The position numbers and the translations under genes were made by a program. Positions 39,757-60,268 of a DNA stretch of 64,000 bases are shown piece by piece (the stretch's first letter is position 1; each line of letters begins with the position of its first letter). The DNA is from Candidatus Peregrinibacteria bacterium (lineage in GTDB: Bacteria; Patescibacteriota; Gracilibacteria; UBA1369; LOWO2-01-FULL-3): contig JAUYJL010000009.1 in the NCBI GenBank assembly GCA_030688025.1, forward strand, positions 1,503-65,502. Reading direction: 5' to 3'. The notes beneath the pieces were generated by a model. That model worked only from the letters and a program-made list of their open reading frames with translations, ran no database searches and was not told the origin of the DNA.

Positions 39757-39796
39757 GTTTCTATACGAAAACACTTCGCATAGAAACGAGTTAGCC
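39757..39796 (+). other. attI-like site
   Basis: Imperfect inverted repeat GTTTCTATACGAA-aacac-TTCGCATAGAAAC, followed by GA-GTTAGCC-GAAAT. The GTTAGCC at 39790-39796 supplies the TTAGCC that matches R'' (GGCTAAC) of the first attC. Confidence 0.7.
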
Positions 39797-39846
39797 GAAA
39801 TATCCTTTTATTAAACTCATTATTTAAAATCCTTAACTAAAATGTT

Positions 39847-40362: not shown

Positions 40363-40383
40363 AAAACAATAAAAGGATACATC

Positions 40384-40500
40384 GGCTAACACAGAATATG
40401 CGGTTTCGCTCCCGTTGGTCGCTACACCCATATTTGCCAGCGGTCGCCCTTCGGGCATATTATACCGCTGTCAAACATCGCATATTCTGGGACGTTGTGC
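40384..40500 (+). other. attC 1 (R'' GGCTAAC ... R' GTTGTGC)
   Basis: L'' CAGAATATGCG pairs with L' CGCATATTCTG, and inner TTTGCCAGCGGT pairs with ACCGCTGTCAAA. Spacers are 1 nt after R'' and 4 nt (GGAC) before R'. Confidence 0.85.
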
Positions 40501-40578
40501 GAAATTCTCTTTTGTGAAAAACTGAAAACAAGGATAATTTTGGCACTTTTTAACTCATTAACTCTTAATTTAAAAACT

Positions 40579-41421
40579 ATGAGCGAGCAAACAACATCGA
40601 AACCTTGGTATAAAAAATGGTGGGGAATCATTTTAACAATCGCATTTTTCCCTCTTGTTGTACCATATTTAGTATGGACAAAAACAACTTGGAATAAATG
40701 GGTCAAAATCGCCATAACGGCAGTTTGTGCAATTATTGTTATTTCCAGCATGGTTGATTCCAGTCAAAGAAAGCAGGAATCCTTGGATCTCGTAAATCAA
40801 GCAGAAGTCTTTATCAGTGAAAATAAAATTAGCGATGCTTTGACTGCTTTGAATAAATCTCAAGAACTTAATACTATAAAAAGTGAAAATTCTGCTTTTG
40901 AATTAGAGGAGAAAATAACAAAATTGCAATCAGCAGAGTTTTTGAAAAAGACTTTAGCAGATATGTCAGATAGCGATTTTGACCTTCTACAGAAAGGCGA
41001 GCTAAAAACATCTTTTATCAATCACGATGGACTAAATAAACTTTTCCTTGCAAAGCTACGAGAGAACGCTGATCAGAGAGCCGTATATATTGCTGAAGTT
41101 GAGGAGTTAAGAAAAAAAGAACAAGAAGAAGCTGAGAAGAAAAAACTAGAAGCTGAAGCCAACGCTAGAACAGAAACGATTGAAAAGCAGTTTAGTGCTT
41201 GGGACGGCTCTCACATTAAACTTACAAGATTGATAAAAAATTCCATGAATGACCCAGATAGCTATGAACATGTTGAAACTAAATATTGGGACATGAAAGA
41301 TCATCTTATTGTAAATACAACATTTAGAGGGAAAAATGCTTTCGGCGGAACTGTAAAAAATACAGTAAAAGCCAAGGTTTCTCTTGACGGTGAGAATGTC
41401 GAAATTCTTGAACAATATTAA
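40579..41421 (+). CDS. Cassette 2: two-TM, coiled-coil hypothetical protein (280 aa)
   Basis: The start is set at MSEQTTSKPWYKKWW; the listed ORF start at 40495 is the cassette junction itself. The central region is Glu/Lys-rich and coiled. The C-terminal FSAWDGSH...KNAFGG domain has unknown function. Confidence 0.6.
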   Translation: MSEQTTSKPWYKKWWGIILTIAFFPLVVPYLVWTKTTWNKWVKIAITAVCAIIVISSMVDSSQRKQESLDLVNQAEVFISENKISDALTALNKSQELNTIKSENSAFELEEKITKLQSAEFLKKTLADMSDSDFDLLQKGELKTSFINHDGLNKLFLAKLRENADQRAVYIAEVEELRKKEQEEAEKKKLEAEANARTETIEKQFSAWDGSHIKLTRLIKNSMNDPDSYEHVETKYWDMKDHLIVNTTFRGKNAFGGTVKNTVKAKVSLDGENVEILEQY

Positions 41422-41475
41422 AGCGGATAAAAAGTGCCAAAATTGAATTAGATTTTTTTCACAAAAGAGAACATC

Positions 41476-41552
41476 GCACAACAGCGTGTATGCGGTTCCG
41501 CTACGCTCCACCCATATTGCTTCGCAACATCGCATACACGCAAACGTTAGCC
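41476..41552 (+). other. attC 2 (R'' GCACAAC ... R' GTTAGCC)
   Basis: L'' GCGTGTATGCG pairs with L' CGCATACACGC. There is 1 nt on the R'' side and AAAC on the R' side. Length is 77 bp. Confidence 0.85.
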
Positions 41553-41645
41553 GAAATTCAAAAAATATTTTCCTATAATTAAAGAGTTTTGATAGGCTCT
41601 TAGAAAATAACAAGCTTTATATAATCCACTAACAACATAAAAAAT

Positions 41646-42041
41646 ATGAAAGTACTTATCATCAAAAACGCACTAATACATTTCCTCCTGATTCCATTCT
41701 ATATTTTCACAGCAAAAGAAGTTGCACTCATGCCAGCAGATAGATGGGATACACTTCTTTTATTTATTGGTCTGATTGTCATAGCGCCAATTACCAGCAA
41801 CTTTATCTACAATTACAAAAATGCTGAAACTCAAAAAGCGATAAACTGGGGGCATGTAACGACATTTTTCTCAATGCTGGTAATTGGCATGCTGTTCATA
41901 GCTTTAGATGTTCTTCTCGTTTTAATGGTCGGAAATGTATTAGTTTTTAGATTAGTGCTTGCTCTTTTCTGGCTAGCCGTAGTTACATTTGATTTTGCAG
42001 ATTTTCTGACAAATACAAAGAGCCTATCAAAACAAAAATAA
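41646..42041 (+). CDS. Cassette 3: small 4-TM membrane protein (131 aa)
   Basis: Four hydrophobic helices; no family recognised. Confidence 0.55.
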   Translation: MKVLIIKNALIHFLLIPFYIFTAKEVALMPADRWDTLLLFIGLIVIAPITSNFIYNYKNAETQKAINWGHVTTFFSMLVIGMLFIALDVLLVLMVGNVLVFRLVLALFWLAVVTFDFADFLTNTKSLSKQK

Positions 42042-42113
42042 GGGAAAATATTTTTTGAACTCGCTCCTTTCAGTCGCGCCCCGCTGCGCTCTCCTCCCTT
42101 TGGTCGTCGGGTC

Positions 42114-42226
42114 GGCTAACACTGCATAACAGGTTCGGCTCTTGCAGAGCCTCACCCAAATTGCGCAGGTGTGAGCCTTCGGCTATTATACACCTGCGCA
42201 ACTTCTGTTATGCAGGAACGTTATAT
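42114..42226 (+). other. attC 3 (R'' GGCTAAC ... R' GTTATAT)
   Basis: L'' CTGCATAACAGG pairs with L' TCTGTTATGCAG, and inner TTGCGCAGGTGT pairs with ACACCTGCGCAA. The R'-side spacer is GAAC. Confidence 0.85.
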
Positions 42227-42267
42227 GAAATGCTTTTGGGGCTAACTTTATTTGATACAATCAAAAC

Positions 42268-43182
42268 ATGAAATTTCAATTAACGGAACCGAACAAACAA
42301 TATTCAAATGCTGAACTCATAGAAGATATTCAAAGAGTTGCAGGTGAGCTCGGCAAAAATTCTGTATCCCAACGAGAATATGATCGATTGGGCAATTTTT
42401 CGTATCAGACATTCAAAAAGAGGTTCGGTTCCTGGAAAAGTGCATTAAAAGAAGCTGGGCTTGAACAAAGCAAGCGTCCTTGGGGTGGTGATTTAACAGA
42501 AACACGCATACCCAAAGAACAGCTTATTGCAGATATGAAAAGAGTTGCAGGCGAACTGGAAAAACAAGCTATCACAATTGCTGATTATGATAAGCATGGA
42601 AAGTTTGGCTCTTCGGCAATCTGTAAAAGATTTGGTGGCTGGAACAAGGCAAAAGAAGCAGCAAATCTGAAAATCGGAAGAGTTTATAATTCAACAGACG
42701 AAGACTATTTTGAAAACATAGCTGATGTTTGGGAACATCTTGGTCGCCAACCACGATATCAAGAAATGACAGCACCACTTTCAAAATTAAATATATCATC
42801 ATACGAGCGAAAATTTGGAACATGGCGAAATGCTCTCGAAAAATTTGTTGAATATATAAACTCTAAAGACGACGCCGAAGAGCCGCAAGAAGCAATCGAG
42901 CCAAAGAAATCAGCAATTGTTCCTAAAAAAGAAGAGAAACCAATAAAAAAGCAGGTGGTTAAAAAAAGAACCAACCGCATTGCAAATCTACGACAGAGAT
43001 TTAGAGTAATGAAAAGAGATGGTTTCAAATGTGTATTGTGTGGAAGTTCGCCAGCAACTCAAGTAGGCTGTGAATTGCATATAGATCACATCATACCTTG
43101 GAGTAAAGGTGGTGAAACTGTAGAGGAAAATTTAAGGACGCTTTGTTCAAGCTGTAATTTAGGAAGATCAAATAAAGAATAA
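42268..43182 (+). CDS. Cassette 4: HNH endonuclease with three N-terminal ~55-aa repeats
   Basis: C-terminal CVLCGS...HIDHIIPWSKGGETVEENLRTLCSSCN is an HNH motif. The N-terminus has three copies of ...(Q/D)YD(R/K)...(F/Y)...KRFGSWK(S/N)AL.EAGL-type repeats (homing-endonuclease-associated repeat). Confidence 0.85.
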   Translation: MKFQLTEPNKQYSNAELIEDIQRVAGELGKNSVSQREYDRLGNFSYQTFKKRFGSWKSALKEAGLEQSKRPWGGDLTETRIPKEQLIADMKRVAGELEKQAITIADYDKHGKFGSSAICKRFGGWNKAKEAANLKIGRVYNSTDEDYFENIADVWEHLGRQPRYQEMTAPLSKLNISSYERKFGTWRNALEKFVEYINSKDDAEEPQEAIEPKKSAIVPKKEEKPIKKQVVKKRTNRIANLRQRFRVMKRDGFKCVLCGSSPATQVGCELHIDHIIPWSKGGETVEENLRTLCSSCNLGRSNKE

Positions 43183-43204
43183 TGAACCGCCCCAAAAGCA
43201 CATC

Positions 43205-43282
43205 ATATAACAAGGCATATACGGCTACGCTACGCTTCGCCCATATTGCTATCGCAACATCGTATATGCCGAAACGTTAGCC
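43205..43282 (+). other. attC 4 (R'' ATATAAC ... R' GTTAGCC)
   Basis: L'' GGCATATACGG pairs with L' CGTATATGCC. The R'-side spacer is GAAAC. Length is 78 bp. Confidence 0.85.
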
Positions 43283-43326
43283 GAAATTGAAAGTAATTTT
43301 TTTATTCCTTTAACCAAAATCAAAAC

Positions 43327-43605
43327 ATGGAAAAGTATTTCATTTTAGCAATAACATTTGCATATAGCATCGGCGGTTTAGTCACATTCGCAGGATTTTT
43401 TCCAACAATGAAGGATTTATGGAAAGGAAAACCAAGTGCAAATGTGCACACCTACATAATTTGGTCGATAACAACCTTCCTTACATCTTTATATGCAATA
43501 TTTGTTGTCAAAGACTTGGTTTTCAGTTTGGTTATCAACCTACAATTAGCGGCATGTTTAATAGTTTTGATTTTGAGATTAAGGCTAAAATTAAAAAGAA
43601 CATAA
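43327..43605 (+). CDS. Cassette 5: small 3-TM membrane protein (92 aa; SemiSWEET/PQ-loop-like topology)
   Basis: Three hydrophobic helices in 92 aa. The family assignment is only a guess from topology. Confidence 0.45.
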   Translation: MEKYFILAITFAYSIGGLVTFAGFFPTMKDLWKGKPSANVHTYIIWSITTFLTSLYAIFVVKDLVFSLVINLQLAACLIVLILRLRLKLKRT

Positions 43606-43665
43606 AAAAATTACTTTCAACTCAAGGGGACGCTGCGCTTTCGCTCCCTTCAGTCGCTCACCCTC

Positions 43666-43783
43666 GGCTAACACTGAATGTGCGGTTCGCGGCTTGCAGC
43701 CGCTCTCCCATATTCACTGGCGGTGAATCGCTTTGCGATATATTATACCGCCAGTGAACATCGCACATTCAGAAACGTTAGGC
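43666..43783 (+). other. attC 5 (R'' GGCTAAC ... R' GTTAGGC)
   Basis: L'' CTGAATGTGCG pairs with L' CGCACATTCAG, and inner TTCACTGGCGGT pairs with ACCGCCAGTGAA. The R'-side spacer is AAAC. Confidence 0.85.
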
Positions 43784-43873
43784 GAAAGAAGAAAAAGCAT
43801 TTGTATTTTACAGTCGACTTGACAAGTCGCCAAAAAAAAGTATAAAGTAGAAAACTATTAACACATACTATTT

Positions 43874-44101
43874 ATGGAAAAAATACAATGTCCTGGTTAT
43901 TACTATAAAAATCGTGAAATGCAGCCAGCCTTTCCTGATGATAAAGTTGATGCATTAGTCCAAGAAGTAGATGGCGAACTCATAGTAGCATGCCCATTTT
44001 TAAGACAACCTACTGAGGCCAGCCCATTGTTATGCGGAAGAATACTTCAGATAACGCATACTGACGAAGTAGCGGCTGGCTGCCCCTATTCAACAAAGTA
44101 A
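43874..44101 (+). CDS. Cassette 6: small Cys-containing hypothetical protein (75 aa)
   Basis: Single ORF in cassette 43778-44239; no family recognised. Confidence 0.45.
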   Translation: MEKIQCPGYYYKNREMQPAFPDDKVDALVQEVDGELIVACPFLRQPTEASPLLCGRILQITHTDEVAAGCPYSTK

Positions 44102-44119
44102 ACCGCTTTTTCTTCCATC

Positions 44120-44245
44120 GCCTAACAATGAATAACTGGTTCACTCCTTCACTCCGTTCAGTCGTTCTCCCAAATTTGGCGGCGGTATGTCGCTCCGCTC
44201 CAAATTTTACCGCCACCACACTTCAGTTATTCATGGACGTTAGCT
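44120..44245 (+). other. attC 6 (R'' GCCTAAC ... R' GTTAGCT)
   Basis: L'' ATGAATAACTGG pairs with L' CAGTTATTCAT, and inner TTTGGCGGCGGT pairs with ACCGCCACCACA (imperfect). The R'-side spacer is GGAC. Confidence 0.85.
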
Positions 44246-44474
44246 GAAATATTCCTTTTCTTTTCTGGGCTATCGCCCAATTGTTTTAAAAAATTTTCAA
44301 ATTTCTTTTTCTTTTTTATAAGGGGAAATATGGAGTTTTCTCCGCTCTGCTACGAAAACACTTGTTTTGTAGAGGGGAATAGCGGTGTTTCCTCCGCTTC
44401 GCTCCAGAAACTCTTTATATATTAAGGGAAAAATACTATACTACCATTAACCCGCCTTTGAACATAAAAACCCT

Positions 44475-46535
44475 ATGGAAATTAATTTCAAAAGTAAATT
44501 ATTTGAACTACTAAAAAGAGACCATCGTCTTTGGAATGAAGAGACCAAGGAATTCAATGAAACTCTTTTAAAAGATTTAGTGGATAAGCTGGATGAAAAT
44601 ATCCTCGAGCTACTTTTTAATAACGCGGAAACAAAAGAACGATTTTTCATAAAAATAAAGGATGTTTATGTATTAAAGCAAAACGAGTTAAAATTTTTCA
44701 TTGATGAAAATAAATTAGACAATTCATTTACCCAGCTTGCCAATAAAATTGGCCTCACCATAGATGACAAAAAAGACGAAAGGGTTGTTTTGAACTGGCC
44801 ATTTAAGGATTGTGTATTAGAGGGCGGCATGACAAAAGAAGACGCTGTTGATGTTTATTATAAATTTGATAAAAAGACCGGCGAATGGAAAGAGGAGGCC
44901 GCAAAGAGAAAAGAAATTTTCTTTAATGAAGTTTTAGCTCGCGATGAAATAGACCGGCTTGAAGATCCAAAAACTCTTTATAAGTGGCGAAGATTTACTG
45001 CTGAAAATTCTGAAAATGGAGAAGAGTTAAAAGAAATAAAGAGAGACGAAAAAGGGATTATAAAGGAAAATTTTGTAATCAAAGGCAATAATCTACTTTC
45101 ATTACATAGCTTAAAATCTCAATTTGAAGGGAAAATAAAACTTATCTACATAGATCCCCCATTTAACACTGGTAAGGATGAATTCAAGTATAATGACAAC
45201 TTTAATCATTCTGCATGGCTAACTTTCATGAAAAACAGGCTAGCGGTAGCAAAAGAATTATTAAGAGATGACGGCGTAATTTTTGTACACATTGGCAATG
45301 AGGAAGCGGCATATATGCAAGTTTTATTAGATGAAATTTTTAACAGGGAAAATTATTTGAATCATATTACAATGAGTACTAATGCGGCATCTGGATTTAA
45401 AGCTACCAGTGCTAAAATATTTTCAACAGCAAACCATATTTTTGTTTATGCCAAAAAAGCAGATAAGGGGTATTTGAATAAGTTATATACAAGAAAAGAA
45501 TATGATGATAGTTACGGATATTATTTACTAAATCCAAGCGAACCATATTCAAGATGGAAGTACAAAAAAATTATTGAAATACTCGCCGAAGAAAATGGAT
45601 TTAAAGATGTGAAATCTTTTCAGAAAAGTTTCGCCAAAGAAATTATACTGGAAAAAATAAAAAAATTTGCACATCTAAATAAGGAAAGAGTATTCCGGAC
45701 TGCAGCATTAGGCGGAGGCGCACTTACGAAAAGAAAAGTCACTGTAGAAAAATCCAAAAAAGAAAAAGGGGTTGTTCTCCAACATCCAAATGAAGACGTG
45801 AAAGGTTTTTATATTTTAAATGGAGAACAGATCGTTTTTTGGTCAAATACCTATAAAGAAATTGATGGAGATATTGTGCCAGCAACATCCCTCACAGATG
45901 TATGGACTGACATCGGTTTTACTGGAATCGCAAATGAGGGTGGTATAACCTTAAAAAATGGCAAAAAACCTGAACCTCTCCTTAAAAGGATAATTGAATT
46001 AGGATCAAGCGAAAATGATATAGTACTTGATTTCTTCGCTGGCAGTGGAACCACTTGCGCGGTGGCCCATAAAATGGGACGACAGTGGATTGCCATCGAA
46101 CAACTTGATTATTCTGATAATAACCCTGAGGAAAGAATGAAAGGGGTCATTGCTGGCGATCCTACTGGAATTTCCAAAACAATAAATTGGAAGGGTGGAG
46201 GTGACTTTATTTACACGCAACTGGCAAAATGGAATGAAGAGGCAAAAGAAAAAATTTCTGAAGCAAAATCTTATGATGAGTTAGTGAAGCTATTTTCATT
46301 GCTCTATGAAAAATATTTCCTAAATTATAATGTGCGAGCAAAAGATTTTAAAGAAAGCATAATAGAAAACAATGAATTCAAAAAACTTTCACTCGAAAGA
46401 CAAAAGGAAATATTTGGAAAAATGCTCGATCTAAACCAGATGTACATAAATTTCAGTGAAAGGAATGATAAAAAATATGAGCTAACATCAAGAGATATAG
46501 AACTCAGTGAAAAATTTTATAATGTGAAAAATTAA
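44475..46535 (+). CDS. mod: Cassette 7: Type III restriction-modification methyltransferase (Mod)
   Basis: LIYIDPPFNTGKDEF (motif IV, DPPF) precedes DFFAGSGTTCAVAHKMGRQWIAIE (motif I), a beta-class order typical of Type III Mod. The res gene follows immediately. Confidence 0.88.
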   Translation: MEINFKSKLFELLKRDHRLWNEETKEFNETLLKDLVDKLDENILELLFNNAETKERFFIKIKDVYVLKQNELKFFIDENKLDNSFTQLANKIGLTIDDKKDERVVLNWPFKDCVLEGGMTKEDAVDVYYKFDKKTGEWKEEAAKRKEIFFNEVLARDEIDRLEDPKTLYKWRRFTAENSENGEELKEIKRDEKGIIKENFVIKGNNLLSLHSLKSQFEGKIKLIYIDPPFNTGKDEFKYNDNFNHSAWLTFMKNRLAVAKELLRDDGVIFVHIGNEEAAYMQVLLDEIFNRENYLNHITMSTNAASGFKATSAKIFSTANHIFVYAKKADKGYLNKLYTRKEYDDSYGYYLLNPSEPYSRWKYKKIIEILAEENGFKDVKSFQKSFAKEIILEKIKKFAHLNKERVFRTAALGGGALTKRKVTVEKSKKEKGVVLQHPNEDVKGFYILNGEQIVFWSNTYKEIDGDIVPATSLTDVWTDIGFTGIANEGGITLKNGKKPEPLLKRIIELGSSENDIVLDFFAGSGTTCAVAHKMGRQWIAIEQLDYSDNNPEERMKGVIAGDPTGISKTINWKGGGDFIYTQLAKWNEEAKEKISEAKSYDELVKLFSLLYEKYFLNYNVRAKDFKESIIENNEFKKLSLERQKEIFGKMLDLNQMYINFSERNDKKYELTSRDIELSEKFYNVKN

Positions 46536-46537
46536 GT

Positions 46538-49321: not shown

Positions 49322-49324
49322 GAA

Positions 49325-49379
49325 GTTTTCGGTCGGGGCAATTCACCCCTTTAGTTCCCCTCTTGCCCCTCCCTCAAAC
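49325..49379. repeat. Conserved-loop hairpin H1 (degenerate copy)
   Basis: GTTTTCGGTCGGGGCAA - TTCACCCCTTTAGTTCCCCTC - TTGCCCCTCCCTCAAAC, with 13/17 stem pairs. Confidence 0.6.
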
Positions 49380-49390
49380 AAGAAATAGGT

Positions 49391-49445
49391 GTTTTGGGTG
49401 GCGGGCATTCACCCCTTTAATTCCCCTCTGCCCACCACCCAAAAC
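49391..49445. repeat. Conserved-loop hairpin H2
   Basis: GTTTTGGGTGGCGGGCA - TTCACCCCTTTAATTCCCCTC - TGCCCACCACCCAAAAC, with 16/17 stem pairs. Confidence 0.75.
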
Positions 49446-49509
49446 GGAAAAAGAAATTTGAAAATTTTTAAAACAACCGACTATCGACGGAAAAGAAAAG
49501 GAATACATC

Positions 49510-49636
49510 AGCTAACACTGCGTATGCGGTTACGGCTTGCTCCGTACCTCCGCAAGCCTCCACCCATATTTGCCAGTGGTAAGCACTTCGTGCAATTATA
49601 CCACTGGCAAACATCGCATACGCAGGGACGTTATGT
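49510..49636 (+). other. attC 7 (R'' AGCTAAC ... R' GTTATGT)
   Basis: L'' TGCGTATGCG pairs with L' CGCATACGCA, and inner TTTGCCAGTGGT pairs perfectly with ACCACTGGCAAA. The R'-side spacer is GGGAC. Confidence 0.88.
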
Positions 49637-49666
49637 GAAATAGACTTTACTACCTAAGTGCAAAAT

Positions 49667-50437
49667 ATGACAAACGATCAAACTAAAAAATTCTACGATG
49701 AACTATCGGCTGATTATCATTTGATTTTCGGTAATTGGGATAATGCAATAAAAAGACAATCAAAAATTTTAGATAACATTATCCAAAAATATTCAAAAAA
49801 CGAATCAAAAACGTTATTGGATTGTTCTTGCGGGATAGGAACACAAGCCATTGGATTAGCGAATCTTGGATATAAAGTTCATGCAACAGATTTAAGTCCA
49901 AAAGCAATTGTGAGAGCCAGATTAGAAGCAAACAAAAGGGGTGTTTCAATATCTTTCGATGTTGCCGATTTCAAGAAATTAGAAGATCAAGTTGAAGGAA
50001 CTTTTGATATTGTCATTTCTTGTGATAATTCATTACCACATTTATTAACAGACGAAGAATTGCTTTTGGCTGCAAAAAATATTCTTTCTAAAATGAAATC
50101 CAATAGCTTGTTTATCGCAAGCATCAGAGATTATGACCAACTTTTGGAAGACAAACCAATTAGCACTCAACCAAACGTAAAAGATTTTACAAAGGAAAGA
50201 ACAATTTCTTTTCAAGTGTGGGATTGGGATGAAAATAATGTTTATACTGTTAATCATTTTACTCTGAAAGGAATTAATGAAAAATTTGATACGTTTTTGA
50301 GAACAACTAAATATAGAGCATATAAACGCGATGAAATGTCTAAAATTTTTAAAGAAGCAGGATTTATCGAAATCAAATGGTTAATGCCGAATGAATCAGA
50401 ATACTATCAGCCGATAATAATTGCGTTGAAACCGTAA
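49667..50437 (+). CDS. Cassette 8: class I SAM-dependent methyltransferase (small-molecule type)
   Basis: LLDCSCGIGTQAIGLANLGYKVHATDLS (motif I and the post-I acidic residue). The start is set at ATG 49667 (MTNDQ) rather than GTG 49658. Confidence 0.8.
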   Translation: MTNDQTKKFYDELSADYHLIFGNWDNAIKRQSKILDNIIQKYSKNESKTLLDCSCGIGTQAIGLANLGYKVHATDLSPKAIVRARLEANKRGVSISFDVADFKKLEDQVEGTFDIVISCDNSLPHLLTDEELLLAAKNILSKMKSNSLFIASIRDYDQLLEDKPISTQPNVKDFTKERTISFQVWDWDENNVYTVNHFTLKGINEKFDTFLRTTKYRAYKRDEMSKIFKEAGFIEIKWLMPNESEYYQPIIIALKP

Positions 50438-50449
50438 AGTCTACATCAC

Positions 50450-50591
50450 ATAACACGGTATATGGGGTTCAGAAAATTTCACTCAAAAGATTTAAAAGGA
50501 ATGTGAAATTTTCTTCTCCCAAATTTGCCTCACACTATTGATAAAAATTAAGGAGTTCGGCAAACTTCCCATATACCGAAACGTTGTGCGA
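50450..50591 (+). other. attC 8 (R'' ACATAAC ... R' GTTGTGC)
   Basis: L'' CGGTATATGGG pairs with L' CCCATATACCG. An inner hairpin is GAAAATTTCAC...GTGAAATTTTC. The R'-side spacer is AAAC. Length is 142 bp. Confidence 0.85.
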
Positions 50592-50761
50592 AATATTTTT
50601 CAATATTTTTTCTTTAATAAGGAATTTTTGTTGAAGAATTTAAAAAAGGATGGAATTTTTATTTTAATGAGGGGGATATAATGTATTTTTTGCTCCGTTC
50701 CTCCGCAAAAAATGGATTTAATATTTAATGGAAAATCAGTATAATACCACTGTAAAACACT

Positions 50762-51598
50762 ATGGCTAAAAAAACTCAATCAAAAAGATTAACGAATCAG
50801 CATAAAAAATCTCAAGGTGTAGTCGGTATATTCTGTAACGAAGCAAAGTTACATGATAAAACGGTTTGTAAAATTTCATACCTTGTAATTGAACAACTTA
50901 AAAAGGAACTTCCTCAGTTATCTTTTAGATATAGAACGTGTATAAAAAAGGAAGAAATAAACAAAGCGTTAAAGAAAATTGATCCAGAATTGGGGCAAAC
51001 CCTTTTTGTGCCAAATTCAAGTATTATTCCAGATGGTGGTATAATTGAAGTAAAAGATGATAGTGGTAATTGGAGAGTAGTACTTGTAACAGAAGCTAAA
51101 CATCAAGGAAAAGACATTGAAAATATACAAATAGGAAATCTAGTTGGTAAAAATAACAATCAAGACTTAATGGCTGCTGGCAATGCCATAGAAAGATCGC
51201 ATAAAAACATATCAGAAATTGCCAACTTTATGCTATATGAATCCCATTTCCCCTATATCTTATTCCTGGAAGGATCAAATTTTCTTACTAAAACTATTTC
51301 AATTAAAAGACCTGACGGAAGAGTGGTTACTCTTAATTATAACTCAGGCATGTTAAATAGATTGGATAGATTAACTTGTGCAAATTATGGAATGCCAATT
51401 AACACTAATTTATGTAAAAATAAATTTGTTAAACATAAAGATAAAACGATTATGCTTCAAGCAGCTTCAATTTTTACACAAGGAAATGGAGGAAAGTGGG
51501 ATGTAAAAGAAATGTTTGATATTATGATTGAAATTTCAAAAACCTCTCTTCAAGTATTAGGAAGTGAAATATTTAAACAAATAACCAAGCGAAAATAA
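50762..51598 (+). CDS. Cassette 9: EcoRI-family Type II restriction endonuclease
   Basis: Near-colinear similarity, from memory, to R.EcoRI. This includes PQLSFRYR, IIPDGGIIEVKDD, WRVVLVTEAKHQGKDI (catalytic D...E-A-K), QDLMAAGNAIERSHKNISEIANFM, FLEGSNFLT, YGMPIN and IMLQAASI. Length is 278 aa versus 277 aa for EcoRI. Confidence 0.88.
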   Translation: MAKKTQSKRLTNQHKKSQGVVGIFCNEAKLHDKTVCKISYLVIEQLKKELPQLSFRYRTCIKKEEINKALKKIDPELGQTLFVPNSSIIPDGGIIEVKDDSGNWRVVLVTEAKHQGKDIENIQIGNLVGKNNNQDLMAAGNAIERSHKNISEIANFMLYESHFPYILFLEGSNFLTKTISIKRPDGRVVTLNYNSGMLNRLDRLTCANYGMPINTNLCKNKFVKHKDKTIMLQAASIFTQGNGGKWDVKEMFDIMIEISKTSLQVLGSEIFKQITKRK

Positions 51599-51627
51599 GA
51601 GATTTATTCATTTAACATAATCTGATA

Positions 51628-52683
51628 ATGGCAAGAAATGCAACAAACAAATTATTGCAAAAAGCTAAGGAATCAAAGAGTGATGAGTTTTACACTCAAC
51701 TTTCAGATATAGAAAGTGAATTGCAACACTACAAAGGTCATTTTAAGGACAAAGTGGTTTTTTGTAATTGCGATGACCCTAAAATTAGCAACTTCTTTAA
51801 CTATTTTGCTTCAAACTTCAAAGAGTTGGGATTAAAAAAAATAATAGCTTCTTGTCATAGAAAACAAGAAAGAAATTTATTTAATACTAAAGAATTTGAA
51901 AGTGGTTATTTTTATGAATATTCAGGTGCTCCGGGAGAAAAAATAAACCCAAGTTCAAATGACATGATTCATTTTAAAGGAGATGGCGATTTTCGCAGCA
52001 CTGAAAGCATTGAACTATTAAAACAATCCGATATTATTGTTACTAATCCACCATTTTCGTTATTCAGGGATTTCGTAGGTCAATTGGTAAAATATGATAA
52101 AAAATTTTTGATAATAGGCAACGTTAATGCTATTACCTATAAAGAAATTTTTAAATTAATTAAGAAAAACAAGGCGTGGCTAGGAATAAATCTAGGTAGA
52201 GGTATTTCAGGTTTTATTGTACCAGAACATTACGAGCTTTACGGAACGGAAGCTCGTATCGATAGTCTTGGAAATAGAATAATCTCCCCAAATAACTGTT
52301 TATGGCTAACTAATTTAGACACATCCAAAAGGCACGAAGACATTATTCTTACAAAGAGATATTTTGGAAACGAAATTGATTATCCCCGTTACGATAACTA
52401 TGATGGAATTAATATAGATAAAACAAAAGATATTCCTTTAGATTATGCAGGCGTTATGGGAGTACCAATAACCTTTTTACATAAATACAATTCAGAGCAG
52501 TTTGAAATCATTAAATTTAGAAAAGGAAATGATGAGAAAGATTTGTCAGTAAACGGGAAATGTCCTTATTTTAGAATCTTAATCAGAAATAAACGCATAC
52601 AGAAGACTGGCAGTTGTCATGCAAGAATTGCAACAGATCAATGTCAGGAATATAAAATGATACCAATACAAACTTTATTATGA
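51628..52683 (+). CDS. Cassette 9: EcoRI-family N6-adenine DNA methyltransferase
   Basis: MARNATNKLL..SKSDEFYTQ, CNCDDP, GDGDFRS, IIVTNPPFSLF (motif IV NPPF), YDKKFLIIGNVN, GFIVPEHYELYGTEARID, NNCLWLTNLD, GVMGVPITFLHK and CPYFRILI all follow M.EcoRI as I remember it. There is an extra ~25-aa tail. Confidence 0.88.
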   Translation: MARNATNKLLQKAKESKSDEFYTQLSDIESELQHYKGHFKDKVVFCNCDDPKISNFFNYFASNFKELGLKKIIASCHRKQERNLFNTKEFESGYFYEYSGAPGEKINPSSNDMIHFKGDGDFRSTESIELLKQSDIIVTNPPFSLFRDFVGQLVKYDKKFLIIGNVNAITYKEIFKLIKKNKAWLGINLGRGISGFIVPEHYELYGTEARIDSLGNRIISPNNCLWLTNLDTSKRHEDIILTKRYFGNEIDYPRYDNYDGINIDKTKDIPLDYAGVMGVPITFLHKYNSEQFEIIKFRKGNDEKDLSVNGKCPYFRILIRNKRIQKTGSCHARIATDQCQEYKMIPIQTLL

Positions 52684-54176
52684 TAAAGACAATAACCATC
52701 CAAAATTTTAGAGGTATAAGGGAACTAAAAGATTTTGAACTCAAAAATCTTTCATTGCTTGTTGGTGAAAATGGAACAAGTAAAACCTCTATTTTAGAAG
52801 CGATAAATTTTTGTCTTTCTCCTTATTTTATATCTGGAAGAATTAAACATACAGATTTTTACAAAGGTGAAGATATTGAGATAAAAATTATTTTGGAATT
52901 TGATGAAAATTTCAAAGTCTTTTTGCCTGATGGCTATACCAAACAAGAGGTTGAGTGCAATAAGGTTTGTTTAGAAATAAAAAAAAGAGATAGGGCGACT
53001 CCCAAAAAGGCATTTTCGGACATTGTTGTTGTTTCTCATTATGTTTTACCAAGCAAAGAAAAAGATAATGAAAATGGTTGGGAGATAACACGAGGAACGG
53101 GATCAAAATTTAAATTTGATGAAAGACGGTTGTCTTTTCCTTTGGAGTCAGAAGGGCTACCAAAAAGTTTTTATTTTCCAAAAAACCGAGAAAAACAATT
53201 GCAGAGAGGCTTTAATTCTTCTATTTCTTCAGTTTTTGATGACTTTAATTGGAGATTCAATAAAGAAGTAAGAAAAATTGAAACAGAAGAAAATTTTAGT
53301 GGAGAAAAATTTACATCTCAAAAAAATAATTTTGAATCAAGTATTTTAGAAAAAATTGATGAACAATCACAACAAAAGACATTCCAGACACTAAACGAAA
53401 AACTGGAAAAAGTAGGTTTACCAAAAGCTGATCTTTCACTAATTGATTGCAATGCGCCTTTTGACAATGCTTTTCTTTCTCAAAAATTAGAATGTTTAGA
53501 CTTGCCTATATCTCAACTTGGGTCAGGTGTTGAAATGGTTGTTTCTTTATTGTTTTTAGAAACAATGGCAGAAATTTCAAAAGAAAATATCTTGATTTTA
53601 ATTGATGAACCAGAGCTACACCTACACCCAGATTTACAAAATAATTTTATTGATCACATAGTATCAATTTCTGAAAAAAATCAATTTCTATTTTCTACTC
53701 ACTCCCCACTTTTCGTTAAACAAACATTAAATAATGAAAATGGAAAAATTCAAATTCATTGTTTGGAAAAAGAAAATGGAGAAGTAAAAATTTTAGAATT
53801 AGAAAAAAGAGTTTTGCCGTATGTTTCAGCTAACGAAGTAAATTTTATTGCTTTTGGGTTAGCAACAGAAGAATATCACAATGAACTTTATAATGAGATT
53901 GAAATAAATTTTTGGAATGATCCAGATAATGATTTTAAAACATTGAAACAAAACGGAAGTTATGACAATAATGACTGTCGTCAAATTATTTTTGATAACG
54001 AATTTTTCTCAAAATTTAAACAAGAACAAATAGATAGTCCTTTTAGGACTACTCAAAATAAAGTAACAATCCACACCTACATTAGAAATAGAATTCATCA
54101 CTCTAAAGAAAATGGAGAAAGTCCAACAACACAAGAATTAAAACAATCCATAGAGAAAATGCGAGGATTTCTTTAA
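52680..54176 (+). CDS. Cassette 9: ABC/OLD-like (AAA_15/21-type) ATPase with a non-TOPRIM C-terminal domain
   Basis: Walker A GENGTSKTS, Walker B ILILIDEPELHLHP and H-loop FSTHSP. The ~115-aa C-terminus has no DxD/TOPRIM motif but contains RNRIHH (an Rx4H pattern). The start codon overlaps the methyltransferase stop (ATGA). Confidence 0.75.
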   Translation: MIKTITIQNFRGIRELKDFELKNLSLLVGENGTSKTSILEAINFCLSPYFISGRIKHTDFYKGEDIEIKIILEFDENFKVFLPDGYTKQEVECNKVCLEIKKRDRATPKKAFSDIVVVSHYVLPSKEKDNENGWEITRGTGSKFKFDERRLSFPLESEGLPKSFYFPKNREKQLQRGFNSSISSVFDDFNWRFNKEVRKIETEENFSGEKFTSQKNNFESSILEKIDEQSQQKTFQTLNEKLEKVGLPKADLSLIDCNAPFDNAFLSQKLECLDLPISQLGSGVEMVVSLLFLETMAEISKENILILIDEPELHLHPDLQNNFIDHIVSISEKNQFLFSTHSPLFVKQTLNNENGKIQIHCLEKENGEVKILELEKRVLPYVSANEVNFIAFGLATEEYHNELYNEIEINFWNDPDNDFKTLKQNGSYDNNDCRQIIFDNEFFSKFKQEQIDSPFRTTQNKVTIHTYIRNRIHHSKENGESPTTQELKQSIEKMRGFL

Positions 54177-54182
54177 TAAGGT

Positions 54183-54231
54183 GTTTTTCTTTTTCCAATT
54201 CACCCCTAACCCCTCTTGGAAAAAGAAAAAC
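54183..54231. repeat. Conserved-loop hairpin H3
   Basis: GTTTTTCTTTTTCCAA - TTCACCCCTAACCCCTC - TTGGAAAAAGAAAAAC, a perfect 16-bp stem. Confidence 0.75.
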
Positions 54232-54308
54232 GAAAAATAAAAATTCCAAATAGAAATAAAATTCTTCAACAAAAGAATAAGGAATGAAAAAATATTGAAA
54301 AATACATC

Positions 54309-54435
54309 GCACAACAACTCATATCTGGCTCAAGAAATTGACACATTAATATTTCAAAGGAAAGTCAATTTCTTTCGACCCAAATTTTTGCTTCACTACG
54401 TTTTGCAAAAACTTCAGATATGAGTAACGTTAGCC
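54309..54435 (+). other. attC 9 (R'' GCACAAC ... R' GTTAGCC)
   Basis: L'' CTCATATCTGG pairs with L' CAGATATGAG. An inner hairpin is GAAATTGAC...GTCAATTTC. The R'-side spacer is TAAC. Confidence 0.85.
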
Positions 54436-54662
54436 GAAATACATTTTTACTATTCCCTTTTTGTCGCTCCGCTTTTCGGACTTTTAATAAGGAGGGGCGA
54501 ATTGATTCTTTATTTTTAGAGGGGGGGGCTGTCTGCCTTTGGCAGCCAGTAAGGTATTTTCTTGCTCCCTTCGGTCGCTACGAAAAATTTAGAATTATTT
54601 TAGAAATATTTAATAATTGCATGATATAATCACTACGAAATTTTAAATAAATCAGAATAAAT

Positions 54663-56255
54663 ATGAACACAACAGAACAAAACGAATTATTAAGTATTCA
54701 AGAAGCAAGCACATGGGCTAGCTCATTTTTGAAGCGCGTCGTTACAGAAAGCAACATTTCATATCTAATTCAGTATGGCAGAGTTAGAAAAATTGGAGAA
54801 AATGGCACAACTCAAATAATAAAAGCAGATTTACTTAGATATTACGAAAAAAGTCGCCCTAGTCGTGAAATATCATGGAAAAAAACGCTTGGAGATGACT
54901 TAAACTGGTCTTTATCTTTTGAACAATATAGAGAATCTGAAACCACAAAGCATGTTCATCGGTTACATCCATACAAAGGAAAATACATTCCTCAACTTGT
55001 TGAGTATTTTTTAGACGATCACACGGATAATTTTAAGAAACAAACTTATTTTAAAAAGGGTGACATCATTCTTGATCCATTTTGTGGAAGTGGAACAACG
55101 CTTGTGCAAGCAAATGAATTGGGTATGCACTCAATCGGGATAGATATTTCCGCCTTCAATTCCTTAATTTCAAACATTAAAATTGGAAAACATGACTTTG
55201 AAGAACTCACCCTGGTAATTAAGCAAATTACTAACAACTTGGAAAAAATTTTAAAGGACGCACACGCAATAGATTTTGAATCAGAACTATTAAAAGAGCT
55301 AAATCAATTCAATTCAAAAAATTTCCCCTCTCCGGAATTTAAGTACAAAATACGCCAAGGACAGGTTGATGAAAGAAAATTTGGAAGCGAAAAAGAAAAA
55401 GAATTTCTGAAAATTTACGATACATTGGTCAAAAAGTATGGAATTAAATTAAAACAACAAAAAAATGAAACATTCTTAGATAAATGGTATCTACAAGCAA
55501 TCAGAGATGAAATAAATTTCATGTTTGAGCAAATTAAGCAAATCAAAAATCCAGACATCAAAAAAGTAATAAGTGTTATTTTAAGCCGTACTATCAGATC
55601 TTGCCGTGCAACAACCCATTCAGATTTAGCAACGCTCAAGGAGCCACAAATAACAACTTATTATTGCAAAAAGCACGGGAAAATGTGCAAACCTCTTTTT
55701 TCAATTTTGAGCTGGTGGAAGCGATATGCTCAAGACACAATGTATAGGTTTAAACAATTCGAAAAATTACGAACTGATACAAAACAAATTTGCTTAACAG
55801 GTGATTCAAGAGAAATAGATATTTTTGGAGAACTAGATAACCGTTATCCCGATTTTGCTAAAATCGTAAAAACTCAAAAGATTAAAGGTATTTTTTCTTC
55901 ACCTCCTTATGTTGGATTGATTGATTATCACGAACAACATGCCTACGCCTATGATCTCTTCGGATTTAAGCGCAAAGACGAATCTGAAATAGGCCCGCTT
56001 TTTCGAGGACAAGGATTAGAAGCAAGAAAAAGCTATATTGAAGGGATTTCATCTGTACTGCTAAATTGCAAAAAATTTCTAGCAGATGATTTCTCCATAT
56101 TTTTAGTAGCCAATGATAAATGGGGTATGTATCCTGAAATTGCTAAAAAAGCAGGACTAAAAATTGTTGAAGAATTTAAAAGACCCGTTTTAAACCGTAC
56201 CGAAAAAGACAAAGGAGCGTATTCAGAGATAATTTTTCACTTAAAAAATAATTAA
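54663..56255 (+). CDS. Cassette 10: DNA methyltransferase (N4-C/N6-A amino-methyltransferase, SPPY motif, alpha-like order)
   Basis: ILDPFCGSGTTLVQANELGMHSIGIDIS (motif I) lies about 270 aa before IFSSPPYVGLIDY (motif IV). The N-terminal segment LSIQEASTWAS... looks like a small HTH. Confidence 0.82.
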   Translation: MNTTEQNELLSIQEASTWASSFLKRVVTESNISYLIQYGRVRKIGENGTTQIIKADLLRYYEKSRPSREISWKKTLGDDLNWSLSFEQYRESETTKHVHRLHPYKGKYIPQLVEYFLDDHTDNFKKQTYFKKGDIILDPFCGSGTTLVQANELGMHSIGIDISAFNSLISNIKIGKHDFEELTLVIKQITNNLEKILKDAHAIDFESELLKELNQFNSKNFPSPEFKYKIRQGQVDERKFGSEKEKEFLKIYDTLVKKYGIKLKQQKNETFLDKWYLQAIRDEINFMFEQIKQIKNPDIKKVISVILSRTIRSCRATTHSDLATLKEPQITTYYCKKHGKMCKPLFSILSWWKRYAQDTMYRFKQFEKLRTDTKQICLTGDSREIDIFGELDNRYPDFAKIVKTQKIKGIFSSPPYVGLIDYHEQHAYAYDLFGFKRKDESEIGPLFRGQGLEARKSYIEGISSVLLNCKKFLADDFSIFLVANDKWGMYPEIAKKAGLKIVEEFKRPVLNRTEKDKGAYSEIIFHLKNN

Positions 56256-56256
56256 T

Positions 56257-57054
56257 ATGGCACTATCAAAAGATTTACAACAGAAGGTTTATGAATTTCT
56301 AAAGGGGAAAATCCTTAAAAAAATTGATGAATACAACTTGAGCGATGAAGACTCATCAAAACCTTTTCAATATGCTCTTTTTACAAAAAAGGGTTACTTG
56401 GCTAAAGGATTTATTCATGGATGTGAAACAGCACTTGGAAATTGGCACGAAACCATAGCGAAAATTATTGCCACTGAAAATTTTGCAACTGCAAATAAAT
56501 TACAAGGACAAAACAAATTAAAAGGTAAAATCACAAGAGAGGCACAAAGAACATCTGAAAATATTTTAAGTGATCTTGATAGCGTTAAGAGAGAACCAAA
56601 TCACAAGTCAGAGTCAGAAGAAATTTTTAATGCTAGCCAAAACCTCGAACAAACAGAGGACAGAATACAAACTGTTGATCTCTACCTAGAAACAAAAGAC
56701 GGTGAAGAAATTTATTTTGAAATAAAGGGACCTAAGCCAAATAAAAACGAAATGAGAGCAGCAAAAAGAGATTTGCTAGAAATATATGCAATGAGATCAG
56801 CGGAAGGCAAGAAAGTAAAAATTTATTTAGGCATGTACTACAACCCATATTATCCCGAAGAGTACCAAAGATGGACATGTATAAAATTCTTTGATAAAGG
56901 TAATGACTTTCTTATTGGCAAAGACTTTTGGGACTTTTTAGGCGGAAACGGAGCTTATGAGGAATTAATTGATATTTATGAAAAAGTCGGAGAAAAAATA
57001 AGACCAGTGCTAGATCAAAAGTTCAAGGACATTGCAAAAAATCAAGAAGAATAA
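56257..57054 (+). CDS. Cassette 10: PD-(D/E)xK Type II restriction endonuclease (family uncertain, possibly TdeIII-like)
   Basis: VDLYLETKDGEEIYFEIKGPKPN fits D-Xn-E-X-K. The gene starts 2 nt after the methyltransferase stop. The family name is only a recollection. Confidence 0.6.
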   Translation: MALSKDLQQKVYEFLKGKILKKIDEYNLSDEDSSKPFQYALFTKKGYLAKGFIHGCETALGNWHETIAKIIATENFATANKLQGQNKLKGKITREAQRTSENILSDLDSVKREPNHKSESEEIFNASQNLEQTEDRIQTVDLYLETKDGEEIYFEIKGPKPNKNEMRAAKRDLLEIYAMRSAEGKKVKIYLGMYYNPYYPEEYQRWTCIKFFDKGNDFLIGKDFWDFLGGNGAYEELIDIYEKVGEKIRPVLDQKFKDIAKNQEE

Positions 57055-57057
57055 AGT

Positions 57058-57106
57058 GTTTTGGCTCGGGCAATTCACCCCCGGCCCCTCTTGCCCTCGC
57101 CAAAAC
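57058..57106. repeat. Conserved-loop hairpin H4
   Basis: GTTTTGGCTCGGGCAA - TTCACCCCCGGCCCCTC - TTGCCCTCGCCAAAAC, with 14/16 stem pairs. Confidence 0.7.
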
Positions 57107-57238
57107 AGAATCAATTCGCCCCTTATAAATAAGTGAAAAGCGGTCGTGACATCGGGAATAGTAAAAATGTACTTCGTTCGGTCGCTACGCTCCCTCCGAC
57201 CACGCTGCGCTCTCGCTCCACTGCGTTACGCTCGGGTC

Positions 57239-57371
57239 GGCTAACACAGCATAACAGGTTCGGGGCTCGGCTCGCCCCTCACCCAAATTGCTTGTTCGCT
57301 TAGGCGGTGCACTCCGTGCTATTATACCGCCACGCTCACTTCGCAACTTCTGTTATGCTGGAACGTTAGCT
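57239..57371 (+). other. attC 10 (R'' GGCTAAC ... R' GTTAGCT)
   Basis: L'' CAGCATAACAGG pairs with L' TCTGTTATGCTG. The R'-side spacer is GAAC. It is closely related to attC 3. Confidence 0.85.
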
Positions 57372-57532
57372 GAAATTTGACTTATTTTTTCAGAACTACT
57401 AACATTAAGACACAATCACATTTTTAGGAAGAGCAAAAACATTCCGGAAAAGATGAAAATCTTAATTTGGGCACACCCCCGACCACCGTATCCGTTAAAA
57501 AGGAATGAATATTATAACATAACACTTAAACC

Positions 57533-59770: not shown

Positions 59771-60121
59771 ATTATTTGTCTTATGATTTACTTACACCCG
59801 AGGCAGAAGTTTACTCATCAAGAGCACAAAAATCAAGAGCTTATGAAAGATTCGAATCAACAAACGCATATCCGCGGGCGGTCTTATGGTTTGATTTGAC
59901 AATTTTCCTCGGGGAAAAACATCTCACCGCACGTACCACGATCTTTTTTCAATAATTGTTAAACTCACTAAAACATTTCTGTACGTATTGGATGGGAAAA
60001 ATTCGACTTGACGGATTTTGGGTTGGAAAAATATTTCGCTTATTTTTCTTTCCTGTAAATTTTTTCAAAATTTCTGAAATTTCACATAACTTTTCCCGGA
60101 AAATATGCGGCAGACACACTG

Positions 60122-60139
60122 GGTGAGCGTACGCTCACC
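60122..60139. promoter_or_regulatory. Third copy of the lexA-type operator (perfect palindrome GGTGAGC-GTAC-GCTCACC)
   Basis: Perfect 18-bp palindrome matching GGTGAG-N6-CTCACC, 130 nt upstream of the HNH gene ATG at 60269. Confidence 0.6.
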
Positions 60140-60268
60140 GCCATATCGCCACACCATGATCGCTCCCCGCGAAAATGTGTTAAAATGGCTTATCCCTGCG
60201 GTTTTCTCGTTGATTTTTGCAATATTTTTTGGTATCTTTTTGTCAGATATTTAATAACTTTTAACATC

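Follow-up and report, generated by a model that had tools for sequence, protein, structure and literature searches.

Putative attC-type recombination sites that would fold into a dif-like core in a cassette array of a Candidatus Peregrinibacteria genome

Integrons and Xer/dif systems are the described systems with which we compare here a cassette array from a Candidatus Peregrinibacteria bacterium, a member of the CPR (candidate phyla radiation, or Patescibacteria). The array is carried by a stretch of 64,000 nt, hereafter the window (contig JAUYJL010000009.1, positions 1,503 to 65,502, of assembly GCA_030688025.1), and contains ten repeats, numbered attC 1 to attC 10, which lie on the plus strand between co-oriented cassettes, with a divergent tyrosine recombinase gene on the minus strand. 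In the integron view, attC sites are recognised by their shape, through extrahelical bases to which the IntI-specific I2 domain binds.

A base counts as extrahelical when it stands singly on the R''-L'' arm and the R'-L' arm offers it no partner (PMC2727003); IntI binds such bases, which direct the choice of strand (PMC5027507), and integrases of the IntI family have an additional domain around patch III (PMC9668308). The dif sites of Xer recombinases are organised as 11-6-11, both in Bacillus subtilis (ACTTCCTAGAA-TATATA-TTATGTAAACT) and in Escherichia coli (GGTGCGCATAA-TGTATA-TTATGTTAAAT) (PMC3025954). CTX phage integrates by means of XerCD, which have no I2-like domain: one strand pair is exchanged between the chromosome and a single strand folded so as to mimic duplex dif (PMC3442271, PMC4792948), and a Xer-like ancestor of the integrases has been put forward as explicit speculation (PMC4792948). 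A literature search turned up no account of integrons or attC sites from CPR bacteria, Patescibacteria or their lineages, which is not proof that there is none.

Sequence grammar and fold of the ten sites

The ten repeats are probably attC-type recombination sites of an integron-like cassette array served by the divergent Xer-type recombinase, and they would become dif-like when folded, as far as can be judged from sequence comparison. All ten share one layout, flank-R''(7, xxxxAAC)-A-L''(11)-variable-CCCAWATT-variable-L'(11)-spacer-R'(7, GTTxxxx)-flank, with 77-142 nt from R'' to R', and were found where an earlier reading of the bare DNA (the sequence-only reading) had placed them. The inverted RYYYAAC...GTTRRRY boxes of classical attC sites, with their conserved AAC and GTT, are present in 10/10 window sites. 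From n = 0 to n = 9, R'(n) and the R''(n+1) that follows it are exact reverse complements, n = 0 being the lone R' of the attI-type site described below; integron-type cassettes would be expected to leave such a footprint.

The spacing of the boxes is equally regular. The sequence-only reading had noted 1-nt spacers between R'' and L'' against 4-nt spacers between L' and R', and this is indeed the case: a single A follows R'' in all ten sites, and RRAC separates L' from R' in nine, the sole site with a 3-nt spacer (AAC) being attC 9, with 1 against 3 and a 2-nt bulge. A register scan in which both spacers were left free (0-6 nt) recovers the 1/4 register for the sites; attC 4, in which the L stem begins with an A.G mismatch, also reads as 1/4 once a single such mismatch at the end of the stem is tolerated. 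The L boxes, thought to vary between 10 and 12 nt, are 11 nt throughout. At the 3' flank, the anticipated GAAAT is found in nine sites and GAAAG in one, and the 5' flank (A)CATC had been partly overstated, with ACATC in six sites, CCATC in one, GGGTC in two and CCCTC in one. The box CCCAWATT is present in exactly one copy per site; across the window it has 17 matches against 8.7 +/- 2.6 expected, and ACGTTRNNNGAAAT has nine against 0.08 expected, all of them inside sites.

The fold was studied with a covariance model (R1) built from the ten window sites and with an alignment of 74 sites fitted to this model, which come from the CPR loci described in the next section. For the ten sites, RNAalifold returns a 1 x 4 asymmetric loop and an 11-bp stem. 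In partition-function folds of the bottom strand in the context of the cassette circle, the bulge nucleotides are unpaired with a probability of at least 0.98 at 10/10 sites (in attC 9, with its 3-nt spacer, this applies to two bulge nucleotides), and the bulge persists when alternative pairings are considered. The AAC/GTT pairs are kept at 93.7% in the 74 sites, and the L stem shows changes on both sides at 11/11 pairs, with 93.7% of its cells paired. Registers in which the L stem is slid pair at 26-42%, and the register that gives the 3-nt bulge is the one that covaries, with a covariation score of 0.402 against 0.099 in shuffles. The compensatory L''/L' stem of classical attC sites is thus present, with 11 bp instead of the classical 7-8 bp, and positions 6-8 of L'' hold a conserved TAT.

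Contrary to what the sequence-only reading had proposed, CCCAWATT is not an independent internal motif. Its W and the W' that precedes L' are T-A in 25 sites, A-T in 19 and C-G in two, with one mismatch (46/47 complementary; Fisher p = 7e-13), and AWATT is predicted to pair with AAC-W'-T just 5' of L', forming a three-way junction that had been overlooked. Since AWATT would pair in this way, hairpin 2 and the L stem would be directly stacked. On the R''-L'' side, hairpin 1 forms a branch between GTT and YCNCC; the first C of CCCAWATT probably closes it, which would leave the CC alone of the box unpaired at the junction. A second bulge, the 2-nt (A/T)T of the R'-L' arm, would result if the GTT after L'' paired with AAC; this fold was rejected because the box W covaries with that dinucleotide. 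One site of the same genome (contig C17, 55-154) has no hairpin 1: here L'' continues straight into AAAT, and the site reads as a contiguous 11-6-11, ACATCGCCGAA CAGCGG ATATCCGAAAT.

When 11 nt are taken outward from the presumed cleavage positions, four arms are obtained, with the consensus acaTCgcaTAA for the R'' arm, ACaTCggATAt for the L' arm, TTAtccGAAAT for the R' arm and ATATccGAtAT for the L''+box arm. On each strand one arm nearly repeats the other, so that the flanks with the R box, on the one hand, and the inner L stem with AWAT, on the other, form two similar 11-bp arms (ACWTC-NNN-TAW / WTA-NNN-GAWAT). The centre between them has 6 nt on the R''-L'' strand (53/53 sites) and 9 nt (46 sites) or 8 nt (7 sites) on the other strand. 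The folded site can be read as an 11-6-11 with a 3-nt (sometimes 2-nt) bulge in its 6-bp centre, matching a Xer/dif core of two ~11-bp inverted arms around 6-8 bp, with arm limits inferred from conservation. In attC 7, the bottom-strand R arm ATTTCACATAA matches the right arm of E. coli dif (bottom strand ATTTAACATAA) at 10/11 positions (PMC3025954). The single terminus site that dimer resolution uses is not what is found in this genome, which has at least 15 sites, placed between accessory-gene cassettes.

The spacers, bubble and box singled out by the sequence-only reading seem to make better sense as elements of one folded dif-like core that contains both a central bulge and a three-way junction, and mimicry of dif with a three-base bulge fits a Xer-like integrase. 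The bulge itself is a conserved asymmetry and a reasonable candidate for the choice of strand or direction, as had been proposed, but not a simple equivalent of extrahelical bases, since it lies on the R'-L' arm. It is found directly inside the R box, and its last base, a C, corresponds to the G that is conserved after AAC on classical bottom strands (PMC2727003). The R''-L'' arm, in which classical sites carry single unpaired bases, has none of them: its centre is of exactly 6 nt in 53/53 sites, its 11-nt L'' is uninterrupted, and its sole extra material is the whole hairpin branch. The central loop, at the position of the classical unpaired spacer, is 1 x 4 (sometimes 1 x 3) instead of ~5 x 6 nt. 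In these respects the sites do depart from the classical attC description, as the sequence-only reading had stated. The 2-nt bubble outside the R boxes exists, and on the bottom strand amounts to just one T.T mismatch and a G.T wobble; it arises because ACWTC and GAAAT, the outer pentamers of the two 11-bp Xer-type arms, are non-complementary at two positions, which on the top strand are non-Watson-Crick in 48 and 53 of 56 sites. Box, bulge and bubble together may act as the code by which the recombinase recognises its substrate.

Besides these features, the long-type sites (window 40434-40463 and 49570-49599, and hairpin 2 of attC 3, 5 and 10) hold TTG(C/G)CA at the base of hairpin 2, followed after ~17-18 nt by a conserved unpaired ATTATAC; this -35/-10-like pair reads into the next cassette and is also conserved in other genomes (L004, L057).

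Occurrence in other CPR genomes

The sites are a real, conserved, phylum-wide variant of attC. Model R1, which recovers the ten window sites at E <= 4e-21, was searched in 80 loci fetched from CPR genomes by means of recombinase homologues, and in a phylum sample of 301 genomes from 248 genera, drawn evenly. The loci yielded the 74 sites (E <= 0.01), all in a fixed orientation, upstream of the integrase gene and on the opposite strand; where more than 2 kb of upstream sequence was available, at least one site was present in 29/34 loci. The phylum sample contained matches at E <= 1e-5 in 54/301 genomes and 53/248 genera. Homologous sites elsewhere keep the features seen in the window. A scan of the loci with free registers, which is independent of the model, shows (1,4) to be by far the commonest spacer pair, followed by a (1,3) subtype, and among the 56 cleanly parsed sites the L stem has 11 bp in 47 and the box is present in 39, with seven further relaxed matches. 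A search of the array against Rfam (E <= 1) returned two chance-level matches only, with no family matched.

The same genome holds five more sites of this grammar on other contigs. Two of them are on contig C17 (3682 bp; locus L085), together with two open reading frames (ORFs; 695 and 306 aa) and a 67-nt 'empty cassette'. This contig has an exact terminal direct repeat of 129 bp, so it may be circular or repeat-collapsed, and its R' GTTCGGC matches its R'' GCCGAAC; it could be an excised two-cassette circle. The others resemble clusters of attC sites lacking integron-integrases (CALIN), with no recombinase gene called nearby: a pair flanking a 148-aa ORF (C18:38707-39466, L084), and a single site with a degenerate R'' (C21:3063-3213).

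Among the relatives, loci L012, L016, L020, L027 and L031, some of them labelled Saccharibacteria or Peregrinibacteria, share a near-identical first attC-like site with 1/3 spacing, GGGGAATATAAC-A-AGGGATATGAG...CTCATATCCCT-GAC-GTT, located 0.8-1.4 kb upstream of the integrase, which may be a lineage-specific conserved first site. In 28/80 loci the recombinase gene is within 300 nt of a contig end, suggesting that repeat-rich arrays routinely break assemblies and that array sizes are underestimated.

The recombinase, the attI-type site and the cassettes

The recombinase encoded beside the array (P0001) has the Pfam Phage_integrase and SAM-like N domains. It scores 213 bits with the NCBIfam model XerA_Arch (cut-off 220) and 188 bits with the IntI model TIGR02249 (cut-off 265), the latter match being split in two stretches. 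The sequence-only reading had supposed that the recombinase lacks the IntI insertion, and the alignment with VchIntIA (2a3v), which covers residues 17-182/14-182 and 202-274/245-317, bears this out: ~43 residues of VchIntIA 183-244 are missing, and with them the additional domain around patch III. The best solved relatives of P0001 are the archaeal XerA proteins 4a8e and 5hxy, and its closest relatives are found in metagenome-assembled genomes of Gracilibacteria, Peregrinibacteria and other Patescibacteria. Its C-terminus (window 38825-38845), ...SPL, aligns with the ...GVLSPL of VchIntIA, an IntI-like tail in a protein otherwise XerA-like. A second, separate tyrosine recombinase, of Xer type, is encoded elsewhere in the genome and could be available for dimer resolution.

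Just outside the range covered by the sequence-only reading, which overlooked it, lies an eleventh, half site of attI type. It has a lone R', GTTAGCC, at 39790-39796 with no R'', and TTCG(C/T)ATA direct repeats upstream; R1 gives a weak partial match here (39768-39806, E = 0.06). The motif TTCGCATA-RnAAC-NA-GTTRRRY-GAAAT is present in most of the 30 loci examined, typically ~90-160 nt from the start of the integrase gene. The related locus L004 is homologous (84%) across the attI region as far as 39807, just past the lone R'. The locus has, in sum, the layout of an integron: an integrase, an attI, co-oriented cassettes each ending in an attC, and the complementarity footprint; 29/34 related loci with enough upstream sequence are laid out in the same way.

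The genome (1.18 Mb, 98% complete; the window is on its contig C23) carries in this array large, multi-gene cassettes, whose cargo comprises unknown proteins, an HNH nuclease, a methyltransferase, a Type III restriction-modification (R-M) system, an EcoRI-type R-M system with an AAA_15 ATPase, and a TdeIII-type R-M system. Exact-protein look-ups gave no help in locating the crossover: for the HNH cassette they returned nothing but a 1.2-kb contig identical to the window, and for the cassette methyltransferase no record. The coordinates are collected in Table 1.

Table 1. Recombinase gene, attI-type core and attC sites of the array, in window positions; the box is CCCAWATT and the spacer separates L' from R'.
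Feature	Position	Strand	R'' to R'	R1 (bits)	Box	Spacer	Remarks
Tyrosine recombinase P0001	38825..39649	minus					274 aa; array-linked; Xer/XerA-like
attI-type core	39773..39801	plus					ACTTCGCATAG-AAACGAG-TTAGCCGAAAT, 11-7-11
attC 1	40379..40505	plus	40384-40500	117.2	CCCATATT, 40427-40434	GGAC	5' half ACATC-GGCTAAC-A-CAGAATATGCG-...; 3' half AACAT-CGCATATTCTG-GGAC-GTTGTGC-GAAAT; bottom-strand fold with 3-nt bulge
attC 2	41471..41557	plus	41476-41552	94.8	41511-41518	AAAC	short type (77 nt R'' to R'); hairpins 1 and 2 minimal
attC 3	42109..42231	plus	42114-42226	111.8	CCCAAATT, 42155-42162	GAAC	5' flank GGGTC; AACTT before L'
attC 4	43200..43287	plus	43205-43282	88.7	43240-43247	AAAC	short type
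attC 5	43661..43788	plus	43666-43783	108.7	43707-43714	AAAC	5' flank CCCTC; 3' flank GAAAG
attC 6	44115..44250	plus	44120-44245	103.6	CCCAAATT, 44169-44176	GGAC	5' flank CCATC; CACTT before L'
attC 7	49505..49641	plus	49510-49636	117.5	49563-49570	GGAC	
attC 8	50443..50594	plus	50448-50589	105.2	50518-50525	AAAC	long A+T-rich hairpin 1
attC 9	54304..54440	plus	54309-54435	80.4	54379-54386	AAC	
attC 10	57234..57376	plus	57239-57371	101.5	57282-57289	GAAC	last site of the array; 5' flank GGGTC

The array is located inside a purine-biosynthesis neighbourhood, with two PurP-type genes in tandem (DUF1246/DUF1297; 35605-37854) adjoining the integrase gene and purH (58232-59770) beyond the last cassette. 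Further on, at 60075-60185, a degenerate, reverse-oriented attC-like stretch, ATTTCACATAAC-TTTT-CCCGGAAAATATGCGG..., stands beside an 18-bp palindrome; R1 does not recover it, and it was set aside.

Active strand, proposed mechanism and related systems

Exchange of the bottom strand, with a cut at G/TT of R' as in classical integrons, is a likely mode of action, held here with good confidence. It is favoured by the mispair bias, the stability of the folds, the lone R' without R'', and the boundaries seen against L004 and L039. Mispairs of G.T type number 52 on the bottom strand and 14 on the top, the invariant A opposite the C of RRAC being a T.G wobble on the bottom strand; in classical attC sites the bias, also in favour of the bottom strand, is of 1.24 against 0.39 per site (PMC5027507). 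The bottom strand is the more stable in 9/10 folds in the array context and in 10/10 folds in the cassette-circle context, so the bottom-strand preference of classical sites is found both in mispairs and in folding energy. In locus L039, whose genome's integrase is just 48% identical to that of the window, the attC body is ~70% identical, and identity reaches 100% from 8 nt before G/TT up to 62 nt into the cassette leader.

The comparison with L039 also shows that the leader (100%, ~62 nt) and trailer (~87%, 128 nt) of the Type III R-M cassette (window 44231-44300 and 49325-49450) recur there around a cassette with entirely different ORFs. Such modular leader and trailer elements appear to move, or to be selected, independently of the cargo. 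The 62-nt identity around R', and the possibly circular contig C17 with its two attC sites, are indirect hints of cassette excision or integration.

The mechanism proposed for this system starts with one strand, most likely the bottom one, which would fold into a hairpin imitating a double-stranded dif-like core. In its R arm of 11 bp, the bottom strand 5'-ATTTC-RYYYAA/C would be paired with GTTRRRY-GATGT, with one T.T mismatch and one G.T wobble. The 6-bp centre would begin with the C-G pair of the R box, followed by the invariant T.G wobble, and the three extra bases of the cleaved strand (5'-TYY-3' on the bottom strand, RRA on the top) would begin two nt 3' of the presumed cut, AA/C. The L arm, also of 11 bp, would consist of the inner 7 bp of the L stem (TAT/ATA) and 4 bp between the AWAT of the box and AC-W'-T, with hairpin 1 branching within it to give the three-way junction. 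Two recombinase monomers would then bind the two similar arms in a sequence-specific manner; the monomer on the R arm would cut the bottom strand between A and C, one strand would be exchanged with attI or another attC, and the junction would be resolved by replication, which is also what happens in integrons and when XerCD integrate CTX phage. The bulge may mark the strand, pre-bend the centre in such a way that only the R-arm monomer is active, and disfavour religation or a second exchange. Further asymmetry could be added by the branch, which interrupts the strand that an L-arm monomer would cut, and by the distorted outer R arm. Bulge, arm mismatches and branch would act as the source of asymmetry in place of the extrahelical bases read by I2.

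The same system could instead recombine its top strand, cut at AA/C of R'', which would place the attC body, with any promoter that it holds, at the 5' end of the cassette. The extra loop bases, being on the R'-L' arm, are on the 3' arm of the top strand, which is the classical geometry of extrahelical bases on the recombinogenic strand (PMC2727003); in other genomes (L039, L052) some attC bodies are conserved together with the leader downstream of them, and a promoter-like TTGCCA-18-TATTAT reads downstream inside attC 1 and attC 7. This is nevertheless unlikely in view of the 52 to 14 mispairs and the cassette-circle folds, of an integrase-proximal site that has R' and no R'', of a boundary between platform and cassettes that falls, against L004, at R'(0) and not at the first R'', and of the L039 site, which becomes identical only from the R' region on. 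Recombination could also proceed on double-stranded DNA, as in Xer/dif modules. Examples of ordinary duplex core sites are the pdif modules of Acinetobacter plasmids, and here the L'-spacer-R' half, which reads as left arm, 9 bp and right arm (11-9-11), would be the duplex core and the hairpin potential would be incidental; the plain 11-7-11 duplex-type attI and the Xer-like recombinase fit such an arrangement. However, non-conserved positions of L'' and L' covary over 40-100 nt (11/11 pairs) and the box covaries with W', which protein binding to duplex DNA does not need, and the outer GAWAT of the L'' arm arises only on folding, save in the branch-less C17 site, making the duplex explanation very unlikely.

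The least probable of the alternatives, hardly to be credited, is that the conserved features act in RNA or transcription, as insulating terminators, processing sites or promoters, and not as recombination signals. Large multi-gene cassettes need expression signals of their own, hairpin 2 has an internal loop with the conserved ATTATAC, and TTGCCA is correctly spaced in the long sites; however, promoter-like matches are not enriched over shuffles (67 against 64.9 +/- 8.4), short sites without the -10-like element keep the grammar, the strand favoured by the wobble bias is antisense to the cassette genes, and no Rfam family is matched, while the R'(n)/R''(n+1) footprint, like the fixed link with a recombinase gene, is a signature of recombination. 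A specific promoter reading, CCCAWATT with TTGCCA...TATTATAC, was tried and rejected: two sites score 9-10/12, there is no regional enrichment, and the short sites are without the -10-like part.

Some observations weigh against the preferred reading, that of folded dif-like sites recombined through the bottom strand. The alignment of 74 sites was fitted to R1 and favours the structure of the model, which is partly offset by the free-register parse and by RNAalifold. The closing pairs of hairpin 1 are Watson-Crick in 27/41 cases, a moderate support, and the R arm and the AAC/GTT positions are nearly invariant, so that they show no covariation. The 11-6-11 parse rests on the similarity of the arms and on the conserved TAT/ATA, with presumed arm boundaries. 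The active strand is inferred indirectly, and the extra loop bases, all on the R'-L' arm, favour the top strand by analogy with the classical geometry. Lastly, 5/34 loci with enough upstream sequence have no R1 match, so the grammar is not universal among the relatives.

The wider proposal, that of a widespread CPR/Patescibacteria integron lineage (~18% of sampled genomes) in which an I2-less Xer-type recombinase acts on folded dif mimics and draws its asymmetry from bulge and branch, is evenly poised. If true, it would stand between Xer/CTX-type recombination and IntI integrons, either as an intermediate still alive today or as a solution reached independently, and would mean that a cassette array can run without I2 and without extrahelical bases. 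The origin of single-strand recombination from Xer-like ancestors is the very step on which there has been speculation (PMC4792948), and the transition from Xer to integrons would become testable here, in a natural system that appears to run cassette arrays with an ancestral-looking toolkit in about one fifth of CPR genomes. The bulge, the arm mismatches, the W-W' pair and the branch are features that can be mutated to probe strand choice without I2 and one-strand exchange. Standard integron finders require the IntI domain, so complete CPR integrons would go unreported; with the covariance model and the grammar, such arrays, whose cargo here includes restriction-modification systems, could be annotated. 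Were the system active, it might also be put to use as a new, orthogonal tool for structure-specific recombination.

Compared with classical integrons and their sites (attCaadA7, VCR), the CPR array shares imperfect palindromes with RYYYAAC...GTTRRRY ends and a variable terminal structure, one site between co-oriented cassettes, a divergent tyrosine recombinase gene, an attI with the R' side alone, an R' complementary to the next R'', an unpaired region, though a much smaller one, directly inside the R box, a G after the bottom-strand AAC and an enrichment of G.T on the bottom strand (PMC2727003, PMC5027507). Unlike them, its sites lack single R''-L'' extrahelical bases and have an uninterrupted 11-bp L stem, a 1 x 4 nt central loop with all extra bases on the R'-L' arm, conservation that extends 5 nt outside both R boxes, a conserved TAT in the L region, and a constrained terminal structure, a three-way junction with a conserved C-CC-AWATT strand; and unlike IntI, its recombinase is devoid of the additional domain (I2) that contacts the extrahelical bases. 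With archaeal integrons (Ghaly et al. 2022) it has in common the occurrence of arrays outside the usual bacterial hosts, in metagenome-assembled genomes; archaeal IntIs keep the additional domain and archaeal attCs are reported with the bacterial fold (PMC9668308), neither of which is found in the CPR system. Xer/dif sites resemble the CPR sites in their 11-bp arms, in the outer ACTTC-like and (T/G)AAAT-like motifs, in the inner TAA/TTA and in the 6-bp centre (PMC3025954). The differences lie in the recombinase, a dedicated paralogue beside the array with a second Xer-type gene elsewhere in the genome, and in the sites, which are arrayed between mobile cassettes and have a centre with a fixed 3-nt bulge and an L arm broken by a branch. 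The nearest mechanistic precedent is the integration of CTX phage.

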